From Syntrophales bacterium (GTDB lineage Bacteria; Desulfobacterota; Syntrophia; Syntrophales; UBA2210): a stretch of DNA of 64,000 bases. Shown here in pieces: positions 40,792 through 47,985 of the stretch. Made by a program: the position numbers and the translations under genes. Below the pieces are notes generated by a model, which was given only the letters and a program-made list of their open reading frames with translations, was not told where the DNA came from and ran no database searches. Every line of letters begins with the position of its first letter. The first letter of the stretch is position 1. The stretch spans positions 864,001 to 928,000 of the forward strand of contig CAXXNF010000001.1 in the NCBI GenBank assembly GCA_963666365.2. Reading direction: 5' to 3'.

Positions 40792-40898
40792 TACTGGAGC
40801 ATCAAATACGTTCACCGGGAGGTACGGCAGCAGGGCGATAATTTAATTTATGAGTAATATCTAATTGTTACATATTTATTTTCGCGAAATCCTCCTTT

Positions 40899-40914
40899 GG
40901 GCACGTTTATTGTA
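40899..40914 (+). promoter_or_regulatory. Sigma54-like promoter, copy 1
   Basis: GGGCACGTTTATTGTA: GGCACG-N4-TTG with GT in place of GC at -12. Confidence 0.55.
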
Positions 40915-40951
40915 ATTAAGAAAGACAAAACGACGAGAGGAGGATGGAAAA

Positions 40952-41416
40952 ATGAACGAAACAAAAAAAGCTGTCGGTTATGTCTGTGATATCCCGGTGA
41001 CCGGAACCCATATGTACATCGGTAAGGAAGATCAAAAAGCCCGTCTCATCAAATATGCGAAAAAGGAACAGATCGAACTGGTCCATATCTTTGAGGACAA
41101 AGAGTGCACCGGCGACTTCATGAACCGTCCCGGCGTGCAAAAGCTCCTGAAGCGAGCCAACCAGTATGACGCAGTGCTGGTCGAGCGGGCCTGGGCACTG
41201 ACCAGAAAGGGAAAGGAACTCACTCCCTTTCTCAAAACAATCGAAGACAGGGGCACCGAACTTGTGGCCACGACCTATCTTTGGGATTATCTGCACCAGA
41301 TGCTGCGCCGCCGATACCGGGGCAGGACCGACGCAGCAGGGGCGGACCTCCGAAAAAACGTGCACTACTACACCCCGAAGATGGAAAGGACCCATGCAGC
41401 CAGGCTCGTCGCCTGA
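40952..41416 (+). CDS. Serine-recombinase catalytic-domain-like protein lacking catalytic residues, copy 1
   Basis: AVGY...Q...YAKKEQIELVHIFED...TG...NRPGVQKLL...DAVLVE...LTR resolvase pattern; GGAGG RBS. Confidence 0.75.
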   Translation: MNETKKAVGYVCDIPVTGTHMYIGKEDQKARLIKYAKKEQIELVHIFEDKECTGDFMNRPGVQKLLKRANQYDAVLVERAWALTRKGKELTPFLKTIEDRGTELVATTYLWDYLHQMLRRRYRGRTDAAGADLRKNVHYYTPKMERTHAARLVA

Positions 41417-41579
41417 AATGCAGAACCGATGACTGCAGGATATTGGATGAGGAACGCGCGGTAGCGGAACCGCATGGACACACCACCAGACAGTAGGGCG
41501 ATACGTCAGTAGCGGAGTGAAGCGATTAGAGGCGGACGATTTGCCTCTCATAGCATAATAAAAAAGGGAGAAGAAACCG

Positions 41580-45768: not shown

Positions 45769-47139
45769 TTATTGTACGGGCAACCTGACGACAAAAACGG
45801 CCCCGGCATCCTTCCGGCTTTGAACAATCAATTTGCCGCCATGATTTTCAATAATACCCAGACTGATACTCAATCCCAGACCGGTCCCCATATCTTTTGT
45901 CGTATAAAAGGGATCGAAAATCTTTTGCAGTTCCCCCTCTCCGATCCCGCATCCCGTATCCTCAAAGACAATGTCCAGCACACGCTTCTCTTCATGATAG
46001 GTCGTGCTGATTTCGAGTCGGCCTCCATCCGGCATGGCCTGCTGGGCATTGACGATGAGGTTCATGAAAACCTGTTGTATCTGATCCGCATCAAACAATA
46101 TCTTGGGAAGATAACCGGGTGCATGTTTGATCAACTCAATATTGCGGAAGTCTTTGTGGTGGACGACGAGATTGACCGTCTTATTCAGTACCGACGTGAT
46201 ATCATCGCATTTTTTTTCAGGCTGGCTCTGCCGCGCAAAGTCCAGAAGCCCCTTTATGATCTTTTTGCATCGTTCCGTTTCCCGGATGACAATGTCGATA
46301 TCATTCTGCACCTGCTCCTGATCCGGACATCCCTCCTTTATAAAGTGTGCGAAGTTGAGAATTCCCGTGAGAGGGCTGTTCAGTTCATGAGCAATTCCCG
46401 CGGAAAGATTCCCGAGAGAGGCCAGTTTTTCACTTTGAATCAGCAGGTTCTGCTGCCGTATTAATTCCTGATTGGCCTCTTCGAGTTGAATGCTCTTCTT
46501 TTCCAGTTGCAATGTCAGATCAAAGAGATCCTTACCGCGACGGTGGAGACTCCGGGAGATAGAGTTGGTCATGTACACGGTTATAAGCATAGTGGCGGCA
46601 AAAGAGGTTATTACGGCAACGAGAAAGGGCATGCTCTGCCACAACTCTCTGGGTGCGAACCCCTCCATGCGGTAATGGGAAATAATGCCGCTCCAGGATA
46701 GCACAATTAAAATGCAGACGAGCAAAATAGATACGATTGCCTGATACCAGATATCCAGGCCGGTCAGGAGGATGCTTCCCATGATCATGTGAAAGACGGC
46801 AAAATAAATAAAAGGGTTTTCGATACCACCGCTGAAATACACCAGAAACACCAGCGCCAGAAGATCGAAGCCGATCTGGAGATTTGCCTCGATCCTTAAT
46901 TCCTGCGGCGTTGGCGTGTGTTGCGAAAAGAACACCCTGTGGAGAAGATAAAAGCCACAATTATACAACAGGACCACGACGGCGATCACAATGATTGGAA
47001 TCAGGGGTACCTTAATGTGGAAAGCTTTCATTGCAAAGAAAATCAAGAGGGTTAACACGAGCAGGAAAACCCAACGCAATTGGACGAACCACCCCAGGCG
47101 CGCCTGTAATTCACCTTCCGAGGGCTTGTAAAAAAACAT
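45769..47139 (-). CDS. Multi-TM sensor histidine kinase
   Basis: About six N-terminal TM segments; SEKLASLGNLSAGIAHELNSP; DTGCG; GTGLGL; GGAGG RBS before Met at 47139. Confidence 0.92.
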   Translation of the reverse strand: MFFYKPSEGELQARLGWFVQLRWVFLLVLTLLIFFAMKAFHIKVPLIPIIVIAVVVLLYNCGFYLLHRVFFSQHTPTPQELRIEANLQIGFDLLALVFLVYFSGGIENPFIYFAVFHMIMGSILLTGLDIWYQAIVSILLVCILIVLSWSGIISHYRMEGFAPRELWQSMPFLVAVITSFAATMLITVYMTNSISRSLHRRGKDLFDLTLQLEKKSIQLEEANQELIRQQNLLIQSEKLASLGNLSAGIAHELNSPLTGILNFAHFIKEGCPDQEQVQNDIDIVIRETERCKKIIKGLLDFARQSQPEKKCDDITSVLNKTVNLVVHHKDFRNIELIKHAPGYLPKILFDADQIQQVFMNLIVNAQQAMPDGGRLEISTTYHEEKRVLDIVFEDTGCGIGEGELQKIFDPFYTTKDMGTGLGLSISLGIIENHGGKLIVQSRKDAGAVFVVRLPVQ

Positions 47140-47195
47140 AGGCCATTCCTCCATGTGCAGGCACCCTACAGGAAGTCATTCCTAATGTCAACTTA

Positions 47196-47339
47196 TGTAT
47201 ATGGTAAATATACATAAGCGCCCCCCCCCTGCTCTTTGAGCAACACCGGCGACGCATTCACTATAATCACACAAATATAACAAGTTAGCGGATCAGAGAC
47301 CGCCTGCACAGGTCCCGCCGCGTATAGCCAAAATATACA
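47196..47339. promoter_or_regulatory. Paired palindromic TGTATA-N7-TATACA-type sites upstream of repeat copy 2
   Basis: TGTATATGGTAAATATACA (47196-47214, palindrome extends 47192-47218) and CGTATAGCCAAAATATACA (47321-47339). Confidence 0.65.
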
Positions 47340-47415
47340 AAAGGCGCTCCCTCTCCAATCCCCGAAGACTCCACTGACAGGACAATAATATTATTTTATG
47401 AGTTATATAAGGTAT

Positions 47416-47985
47416 TTACATATTTATTTTCGCGAAATCCTCCTTTGGGCACGTTTATTGTAATTAAGAAAGACAAAACGACGAGAGGAGGATGGAAAAA
47501 TGAACGAAACAAAAAAAGCTGTCGGTTATGTCTGTGATATCCCGGTGACCGGAACCCATATGTACATCGGTAAGGAAGATCAAAAAGCCCGTCTCATCAA
47601 ATATGCGAAAAAGGAACAGATCGAACTGGTCCATATCTTTGAGGACAAAGAGTGCACCGGCGACTTCATGAACCGTCCCGGCGTGCAAAAGCTCCTGAAG
47701 CGAGCCAACCAGTATGACGCAGTGCTGGTCGAGCGGGCCTGGGCACTGACCAGAAAGGGAAAGGAACTCAATCCCTTTCTCAAAACAATCGAAGACAGGG
47801 GCGCCGAACTTGTGGCCACGACCTATCTTTGGGATTATCTGCACCAGATGCTGCGCCGCCGATACGGTGGCAGGACCGAGGCAACAGGGACAGAACCCCG
47901 AAAAAACGTGCACTACTACACCCCGAAGATGGAAAGGACCCATGCAGCCAGGCTCGTCGCCTGAAATGCAGAACCGATGACTGCA
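47416..47985 (+). repeat. 570-bp direct repeat, copy 2 (includes sigma54-like promoter at 47447-47462)
   Basis: Offset 6548 bp from copy 1. Confidence 0.95.
47500..47964 (+). CDS. Serine-recombinase catalytic-domain-like protein lacking catalytic residues, copy 2
   Basis: 146/154 aa identical to 40952-41416. Confidence 0.75.
   Translation: MNETKKAVGYVCDIPVTGTHMYIGKEDQKARLIKYAKKEQIELVHIFEDKECTGDFMNRPGVQKLLKRANQYDAVLVERAWALTRKGKELNPFLKTIEDRGAELVATTYLWDYLHQMLRRRYGGRTEATGTEPRKNVHYYTPKMERTHAARLVA

Follow-up and report, generated by a model that had tools for sequence, protein, structure and literature searches.

A serine-recombinase domain without its catalytic serine as a candidate output of an AtoSC-like sigma54 two-component system in a Syntrophales bacterium

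Introduction

The AtoS-AtoC two-component system of Escherichia coli governs the atoDAEB operon of short-chain acyl metabolism. Here we describe a locus of a Syntrophales bacterium that likewise places a sigma54 two-component system beside a short-chain CoA-transferase operon, and in which each putatively controlled promoter is followed by a gene for a small protein, here called ResL, that resembles the catalytic domain of a serine recombinase deprived of its catalytic serine. The locus lies in a stretch of 64,000 nucleotides (the window; positions 864,001 to 928,000 of contig CAXXNF010000001.1, assembly GCA_963666365.2), and its two ResL genes, ResL-A and ResL-B, enclose genes for a CoA-transferase, an acyl-CoA dehydrogenase, a sigma54 response regulator and a histidine kinase (Table 1). 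We propose, giving the proposal about even chances, that ResL is an exapted, noncatalytic recombinase domain that serves this AtoSC-like system as its primary sigma54-dependent output, and that it probably acts as an oligomerizing regulatory or adaptor protein.

Comparison with the described systems shows which part of the arrangement is familiar. Sigma54 two-component systems that drive a catabolic operon are a familiar type; the novelty lies in the dead-recombinase component, and we know of no ResL-like first gene in ato. The window regulator and the kinase core find their best NCBIfam matches in AtoC and AtoS, respectively, yet at scores far below the equivalog cutoffs (459.6 against 714 and 225.1 against 646), and the kinase matches AtoS over residues 233 to 460 only, with a PilS-like domain of six transmembrane helices (6-TM) replacing the AtoS sensor part. 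In the PspA-PspF system, the activator is controlled by the product of the gene that opens the divergent sigma54 operon. The same layout, an activator gene divergent from a sigma54 operon led by a small nonenzymatic protein, is found at ResL-B and in 29 of 44 related loci (see below), but the fold of PspA is unrelated to that of ResL, PspF has no receiver domain, and any contact between ResL and its activator would be hypothetical. Response regulators with non-DNA-binding outputs have a counterpart in the receiver-ResL fusions of other organisms described below, whereas ResL in the window is a separate gene.

In full-text literature searches we found neither a Ser-less resolvase family nor a resolvase-type response-regulator output nor this regulon described, with the proviso that supplements may list such genes in sigma54 regulons, and the literature searched names no resolvase-derived output domain of response regulators. 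As far as the portions of text available to the search extend, PMC8987985 mentions active recombinases only, PMC4641369 contains none of the family or regulon terms searched, and the words resolvase, recombinase and invertase do not occur in PMC12316311. If our proposal is true, ResL would clearly exemplify the recruitment of a mobile-element enzyme into cell signaling, serine recombinases being otherwise known as DNA-rearranging enzymes of mobile elements. Since the module precedes genes for short-chain acyl-CoA metabolism and for a membrane Fe-S oxidoreductase, the function of ResL also bears on how fatty-acid-oxidizing, often syntrophic, anaerobes switch on an energetically marginal pathway.

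Fold and catalytic residues of ResL

ResL matches the Resolvase N-terminal domain of Pfam (PF00239) with an E value of 1.3e-12 over residues 26 to 108. Its AlphaFold2 (AF2) model, with a predicted local distance difference test score of 73.9, consists of four beta-alpha units and a long helix (residues 109 to 128), and residues 125 to 154 are predicted to be disordered. All top Foldseek matches of this model were serine recombinases, and in an independent structure search with VIA-align 11 of the top 12 rows were named recombinases, integrases or transposases (Z 10.2 to 14.9), the remaining row being an unnamed "putative DNA binding protein." The closest structure was that of the TP901-1 integrase catalytic domain (3bvp; Z 14.9, root mean square deviation 2.2, 99 residues). 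ResL thus shares with serine recombinases the fold of the catalytic domain together with the E-helix, and the resolvase fold that an earlier note had predicted from the letters of the window is borne out.

The active site, in contrast, has been lost. In an alignment with four true recombinases (P0085 and open reading frames [ORFs] of loci L024, L025 and L028), in which the N terminus aligns without gaps, the Arg and Ser of YxRVS correspond to Cys12 and Ile14 of ResL, and the Asp and first Arg of D-R-x-x-R correspond to Trp81 and Ala82, while the last Arg is retained as Arg85. The replacement of GYxRVS by GYVCDI and of DRxxR by WALTR, which the earlier note had read, is therefore confirmed, and it removes the nucleophilic Ser plus three of the four Arg/Asp catalytic residues; the substituted Ser and Arg residues are required for catalysis in recombinases. 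Residues that ResL and serine recombinases have in common are A7, Y10, Q28, D49, R59, G61, R85 and D112. Also in keeping with the note, neither Pfam nor the AF2 model gives ResL a helix-turn-helix (HTH) or large C-terminal recombinase domain, and no second Pfam domain of any kind was found in its 154 residues. With no inverted repeats of at least 40 bp in positions 38000 to 51000, the locus shows no cognate recombination sites, and it has no mobile-element setting, its neighbors being housekeeping and catabolic genes, and the gene stands instead under putative sigma54 control. Judged from its sequence, ResL is a domesticated, catalytically dead serine-recombinase catalytic domain, predicted neither to cut nor to join DNA.

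A dead recombinase domain might still act on recombination, as a dominant-negative partner or inhibitor of an active serine recombinase (a function the earlier note had considered) or as a noncatalytic synapsis factor on DNA. The E-helix, which makes dimer and tetramer contacts in recombinases, is retained in the AF2 model, and the closest relatives that possess catalytic residues are small recombinases of about 230 amino acids (aa). We nevertheless regard such a role as very improbable, since PF00239 is matched in the 4.0-Mb genome (94% complete) by the two ResL copies and nothing else; moreover, positions 38000 to 51000 contain no inverted repeats of at least 40 bp, and what is conserved in linkage with ResL is a sigma54 two-component system rather than mobile elements.

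A family without the catalytic serine

A word-indexed search returned 20 relatives of ResL, 102 to 183 aa long and all without the Ser. In 21 of 21 close homologs a GYVCD[IV]P-like motif replaces YxRVS and VERAW..R replaces DRxxR, and a YLWD motif is also present. An exhaustive profile search yielded 626 representatives at an E value of at most 1e-3, 59 at 1e-10 or below and 13 at 1e-30 or below; among the best 70 of these 626, proteins bearing YxRVS first show at an E value of about 1e-9. Across 44 diverse ResL members, Y10, D112 and R119 are invariant, A7, Q28, R59, W111, S115 and Q116 are conserved to at least 90%, and there is no conserved Cys or cofactor motif. Homologs that are short, uniformly Ser-less and furnished with conserved motifs of their own mean that ResL is not a truncated pseudogene. 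In the ESM Atlas we found only clusters of about 150 aa named "Resolvase N-terminal domain-containing protein," and in databases the relatives are called "recombinase family protein" or "DNA invertase Pin-like," annotations that mislead surveys of mobile elements and phase variation. Weak matches from the scans of the order and the phylum (genomes G079, G272, G598, G625, G696 and G721), with YxRVST and DRLxR-type motifs and longer ORFs, are true recombinases and were excluded from the ResL counts.

Besides single domains, the family includes a two-domain (P0023) and a three-domain (P0022) polypeptide as well as fusions to receiver (REC) domains. Five of the latter (P0059, P0060, P0070, P0074 and P0079) are REC plus Resolvase by Pfam, and a sixth (P0046) is REC by Pfam and ResL by profile, its REC domain being 33% identical to that of the window regulator. 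In these fusions, all from other organisms, the receiver carries the standard phospho-acceptor residues and the ResL domain is C-terminal. Fusions of up to 479 aa were found in a search of representatives without length limit; a search of proteins of 322 to 2,000 aa for longer ones gave none at an E value of at most 1e-10, a null result of little evidential weight.

A midpoint-rooted FastTree phylogeny of 74 distinct ResL domains separated two clades, of which that of the window is accompanied by PilS-like kinases and the second by Cache-HAMP kinases. Tandem pairs of the window clade divide into two old groups, one made up of the first genes and the other of the second; ResL-A and ResL-B are mutual closest relatives and are therefore not the old tandem pair. 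In the second clade (alignment A4) the proteins end, past a variable linker, in a short, conserved [VI]R[RK]PxxLxF motif that is absent from the window proteins and, as a sequence, looks like a docking peptide.

This pattern of conservation can also be read as the trace of a binding site, in which case ResL would be a small-molecule sensor whose old active-site pocket binds a CoA ester, a nucleotide or a second messenger and informs the kinase or the regulator. The invariant or nearly invariant polar and aromatic residues Y10, Q28, R59, W111, D112, Q116 and R119, partly shared with the active-site region of recombinases, would suit such a pocket, as would the lack of any recognizable ligand-binding domain other than the PilS-like 6-TM part in the kinases of the window clade. 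The kinases of the second clade, however, do have Cache and HAMP sensor domains, and we consider a sensor role rather unlikely.

Promoters and operators

For comparison we collected 66 loci outside the window, made up of same-order genomes, nine further genome loci and 54 metagenome loci; the last were found with the narrow alignment A4 and consequently belong mainly to the second clade. Each ResL gene in the window is preceded by a -24/-12 element, GGGCAC-N5-TTGT, close to the usual sigma54 consensus TGGCAC-N5-TTGC, and the relatives have an equivalent TGGCA[CT]-N5-TTG upstream of ResL. A match lies 40 to 180 nucleotides (nt) before the ResL start in 14 of the 14 loci first inspected, and a strict regular expression recovered it in 42 of the 60 loci with at least 150 nt of upstream sequence. 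The promoters that the earlier note had placed before both copies are thus present and of the sigma54, not the sigma70, type, and their dependence on sigma54, for which the genome has one rpoN gene, is suggested by these elements.

The second conserved feature is the palindrome GTAT-N9-ATAC, a candidate activator-binding site, which occurs exactly four times in the window against 0.27 expected, a number reached in 0 of 100 shuffles. In all close relatives two such palindromes stand about 120 to 125 bp apart upstream of the promoter, and at least one is found in 44 of the 51 loci with at least 350 nt upstream. They recur in the second clade, with its quite different kinases, and at L021, where a ResL pair has no kinase or regulator within 7.5 kb and yet keeps the palindromes. 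In the genome as a whole, the paired layout is confined to the two ResL promoters (0 for a reversed control pattern); the strict single site has four occurrences and the control pattern six. Between palindromes and promoter we noticed by eye, at several loci, ATCAA-N4-TTR, a putative IHF-like site. These control elements suggest binding of the palindromes by the adjacent regulator, whose regulon in this genome would consist of just the two ResL promoters; predicted operator pairs and a two-promoter regulon together make a directly testable system.

The genes for the CoA-transferase and the acyl-CoA dehydrogenase follow ResL-A without a predicted intervening terminator, and the cis-elements suggest that the two-component system would control this operon. 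Going by the absent predicted terminator, the cotranscription with acyl-CoA genes that the earlier note had proposed would apply to ResL-A; it does not extend to ResL-B. Between the latter and the hypoxanthine phosphoribosyltransferase gene (hpt), 78 bp further on, there is only a weak hairpin (47991 to 48009), and read-through from the second promoter into hpt may or may not occur.

Gene neighborhood and distribution

The three same-order relatives G254, G255 and G153 show how the surroundings of ResL vary. In G254 the regulator and kinase genes are divergent from a run of ResL, CoA-transferase, acyl-CoA synthetase, thiolase, hydroxyacyl-CoA dehydrogenase and acyl-CoA dehydrogenase genes. G255 has ResL, an rve-type transposase and an acyl-CoA synthetase gene, followed by convergent regulator and kinase genes; here an rve/HTH_23 transposase gene (L011, 10183 to 11382) splits ResL from the synthetase gene, in an operon that is intact in G254. 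In G153, ResL is divergent from kinase and regulator genes and is the sole gene behind the controlled promoter. By tblastn, a divergent kinase or sigma54 regulator gene lies within 1.2 kb in 29 of the 44 loci with at least 1 kb upstream, so that the linkage to sigma54 activators that the earlier note had asked about is found.

ResL occurs once in 52, twice in 11 and three times in 3 of the 66 loci, with tandem pairs or triplets in 14. At L083 a third ResL gene (901 to 1335) stands about 1.7 kb past the regulator gene, so that the kinase and regulator genes separate it from a tandem ResL pair, a layout that recalls the bracketing seen in the window. The family is rare: it was found in 4 of 339 genomes of the order (two true recombinases removed) and in 2 of 401 genomes sampled across the phylum (five removed). 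An orthologous kinase (E value of at most 1e-80) occurs in the same 4 of the 339 genomes, and a genome of the same genus (97% complete) has neither ResL nor this kinase. The module also occurs in anaerobes from metagenomes of sediment, sludge and landfill.

The other frequent neighbor is a membrane oxidoreductase of about 700 aa, with NarI-like, 4Fe-4S and two CCG domains, encoded at most 500 bp downstream in 32 of the 45 loci with at least 700 bp of downstream sequence (tblastn and Pfam); together with the genes in the window and in G254, this bears out the expected linkage to acyl-CoA or electron-transfer genes. It also founds the main rival to a signaling role, namely that ResL is an accessory subunit, assembly factor or modulator of an acyl-CoA electron-transfer route running from the dehydrogenase through this oxidoreductase to quinone. 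In syntrophic fatty acid oxidizers, similar membrane Fe-S proteins are thought to receive the electrons of acyl-CoA dehydrogenases via electron transfer flavoprotein. The oxidoreductase gene is on the same strand as ResL, the pairing persists at L069 to L071, where ResL adjoins neither a kinase nor a regulator gene and the sigma54 and palindrome signatures are absent, and in both the window and G254 ResL precedes genes for a CoA-transferase and an acyl-CoA dehydrogenase. Elsewhere in the genome, about 108 kb from ResL-B, the oxidoreductase has a full-length homolog (L087; 37% identity; genome contig 1, 1019815 to 1021860, minus strand), at which no paired palindromes are found. We nevertheless hold an electron-transfer role to be somewhat unlikely, for the oxidoreductase gene does not adjoin ResL in the window, G254, G255 or G153, ResL stands without metabolic genes in G153 and at ResL-B, fusion to a phospho-acceptor receiver is typical of signaling outputs and not of respiratory subunits, and the family has no conserved Cys or cofactor motif.

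Proposed role of ResL

The reading that we prefer, ResL as a signaling output, can be supported by several lines of reasoning: (i) ResL stays with the kinase and regulator while the metabolic genes change; (ii) in G153, and probably at ResL-B too, the controlled promoter serves ResL alone; and (iii) it is elsewhere fused directly to a receiver domain. The earlier note had seen in it the regulated output of the enclosed two-component system, and the conserved sigma54 promoter, the paired operators and the matching phyletic distribution of the kinase lend support to that proposal. In the scheme we envisage, the kinase would phosphorylate the regulator, which would bind the two palindromes about 110 and 230 to 235 bp upstream of the -24/-12 promoter, whereupon sigma54 RNA polymerase would transcribe ResL as the first gene of the controlled unit, the first unit comprising ResL-A, the CoA-transferase and the acyl-CoA dehydrogenase, and the second ResL-B alone or with hpt. 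ResL could then be an effector that relays the signal or a feedback element acting on its own activator, and an oligomer formed on the retained E-helix would fit the tandem and fused ResL copies; all such molecular activities of ResL are putative. Complex prediction for the regulator (15-row alignment) with ResL (21-row alignment) scored 0.00 in both runs, which has no bearing either way.

A broader version of this reading, which we put forward tentatively and at less than even chances, is that ResL represents an unrecognized class of signaling output domain derived from a serine recombinase, made on the command of a receiver or fused to one and acting through protein contacts rather than by chemistry on DNA. 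ResL may, for example, dock on the enhancer-bound sigma54 activator for feedback, or couple the signal to the Fe-S oxidoreductase. The catalytic domains of invertases are activated through contact with enhancer-bound Fis, and the Fis-type DNA-binding domain of the regulator offers a suggestive parallel to that contact.

Several observations weigh against the signaling reading: (i) in the window's clade the -12 element is TTGT or TTGA, not the usual TTGC; (ii) in 15 of the 44 loci with upstream flank, ResL adjoins neither a kinase nor a regulator gene; (iii) seven loci (L063, L068 to L072 and L075) keep ResL without promoter or palindromes, three of them, L069 to L071, adjoining the Fe-S oxidoreductase, so that ResL can exist apart from this two-component system; (iv) the association with that oxidoreductase, the tightest neighbor in the wider family, suits a metabolic or electron-transfer role as well as a regulatory one; (v) Y10, Q28, D49, R59, R85 and D112 of ResL are common to active recombinases, which leaves room for some nucleic acid- or phosphate-binding activity; and (vi) the loci are not independent, as there are near-duplicate metagenome contigs and 11 of 85 ResL domain sequences are exact duplicates.

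Duplication of the ResL unit

The two 570-bp direct repeats, 6,548 bp apart, that the earlier note had described are borne out by repeat search, pairwise alignment and a scripted comparison, and constitute the single direct-repeat family found in the region. The cores differ at 10 of 570 positions, namely 41223, 41255 and eight inside 41318 to 41349. These eight, within 32 bp (47866 to 47897 in the second copy), alter six residues among 123 to 133, in the disordered linker, out of the 8 residues at which ResL-A and ResL-B differ; the cluster could be the boundary of a conversion tract or a diversifying change. The 261 bp 5' of the cores (40607 to 40867 and 47155 to 47415) are 60% identical (z 10.4 against 300 shuffles), no similarity was found between the two downstream sides, and the intergenic region 5' of ResL-A is exactly as long, at 345 bp, as the gap between the kinase gene and ResL-B. 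From the upstream homology and these equal lengths it follows that the duplicated unit is about 830 bp long and comprises the whole regulatory region and the gene. The 570-bp repeat is thus a lineage-specific duplication of a promoter-plus-gene unit, and the bracketing of the signaling cassette, to which the earlier note had drawn attention, is real in the window but peculiar to this lineage and not a conserved feature, since relatives have one ResL or a tandem pair, oriented divergently to the kinase and regulator genes.

The near-identical core has probably been maintained by gene conversion, as suggested by a divergence of 1.8% in the core against 40% in the distal regulatory region and by the eight mismatches in 32 bp. 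Positional comparisons of the distal regulatory regions are mixed: similarity to the region in G254 is far higher for copy B (z 8.0) than for copy A (z 0.4), similarity to G255 is slightly higher for copy A (6.3, against 5.0 for copy B), and the highest score is that of the two copies against each other (z 11.3). These comparisons fit an old duplication combined with gene conversion as well as a recent one, and do not separate the two.

Public contigs bear on whether the repeat is genuine. The genome assembly has exactly two ResL copies. A 6,889-bp contig (run X2) bridges 40000 to 43111 with 0 differences and spans copy A with both flanks, metagenome contig X5 spans 47342 to 47985, the left edge and body of copy B, and pieces from a related organism in another study (X4) terminate at 40894 and 41400 and at 47442 and 47948, with all flanks present. 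Among the contig pieces listed, none spans copy B with both flanks and none from X1 or X2 falls inside copy B, a gap that carries no weight as evidence; runs X1 and X2 possibly come from the assembled sample itself and are not independent of the assembly. As far as these contigs show, the repeat is not an assembly artefact. A recombinase gene in decay, of which the ORFs would be remnants, or an artefactual repeat after all, would agree with a short gene devoid of catalytic residues and with Logan contig pieces that terminate at the repeat edges. We consider this extremely improbable: across sequences with a mean column identity of 30% the family has invariant motifs of its own, both copies are intact with differing flanks and 10 mismatches, contigs cover copy A with its flanks and copy B over its left edge and body, and the same break points appear in the related organism. 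A composite transposon or insertion sequence was rejected as well, the repeats encoding the dead ResL, lacking inverted repeats of at least 40 bp and beginning inside a homologous regulatory region.

Organization of the locus

The features of the locus are listed in Table 1. Each repeat carries an intact ResL ORF with an AGGAGG ribosome-binding site 8 nt 5' of the ATG, and the identities that the earlier note had assigned to the four genes between the repeats agree with Pfam. The hairpin that follows the dehydrogenase gene is probably a two-way terminator.

Table 1. Positions in the window of the ResL genes, their regulatory elements and the neighboring genes
Feature	Position	Strand	Description
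Regulatory region A	40607..40951	+	345 bp intergenic, after plus-strand ORF ending at 40606
Distal palindrome A	40653..40669		GTAT-N9-ATAC; candidate activator-binding site
Proximal palindrome A	40774..40790		GTAT-N9-ATAC; candidate activator-binding site
Core repeat, copy A	40868..41437	+	570 bp; identical 570-bp public contig exists (run X1)
Promoter A	40899..40914	+	sigma54-type -24/-12, GGGCAC-N5-TTGT
ResL-A	40952..41416	+	154 aa; Ser-less serine-recombinase catalytic domain, E-helix, disordered tail
Acetyl-CoA hydrolase/transferase family protein	41580..42998	+	Pfam; best NCBIfam match butyryl-CoA:acetate CoA-transferase, below cutoff
Acyl-CoA dehydrogenase	43086..44234	+	Pfam; best NCBIfam match AcrC-type, below cutoff
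Hairpin	44238..44283		19 pairs, 11 GC; terminator-like; fills gap between convergent dehydrogenase and regulator genes
NtrC-family sigma54 response regulator	44309..45742	-	REC, AAA+, Fis-type HTH_8 (Pfam); best NCBIfam match AtoC, below cutoff
Histidine kinase	45769..47154	-	PilS-like 6-TM N-terminal domain, HisKA, HATPase_c; best NCBIfam match AtoS, below cutoff
Regulatory region B	47155..47499	+	345 bp, divergent from kinase gene
Distal palindrome B	47197..47213		GTAT-N9-ATAC; candidate activator-binding site
Proximal palindrome B	47322..47338		GTAT-N9-ATAC; candidate activator-binding site
Core repeat, copy B	47416..47985	+	570 bp; repeat search and pairwise alignment
Promoter B	47447..47462	+	sigma54-type -24/-12, GGGCAC-N5-TTGT
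ResL-B	47500..47964	+	154 aa; 95% identical to ResL-A
Hypoxanthine phosphoribosyltransferase (hpt)	48043..48576	+	TIGR01203, above cutoff

The acyl-CoA dehydrogenase is 95.5% identical to its ortholog in G254, against 83% for the CoA-transferase, 86% for the regulator, 76% for the kinase and 70% for ResL, which reflects either unusually strong constraint on the dehydrogenase or a recent exchange of that gene alone.

Upstream of regulatory region A, positions 37625 to 40606 encode on the plus strand a TPM-domain protein, an unassigned ORF, a LemA protein (39196 to 39774) and a further unassigned ORF that ends at 40606. Two minus-strand ORFs across this stretch (39166 to 39786 and 39767 to 40705) have no Pfam match and are probably spurious, the plus-strand LemA reading being preferred. 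A second sigma54 regulator of REC-AAA+-HTH_8 architecture (32227 to 33606, plus strand) has no GTAT-N9-ATAC sites near it and directly follows the gene for an SbcC/Rad50-like ATPase of 1,118 aa (28917 to 32273, plus strand). Adjacent genes for tRNA-Glu(CTC) and tRNA-Gln(CTG), at 10983 to 11135 on the minus strand, are the sole Rfam and ARAGORN matches in the window.

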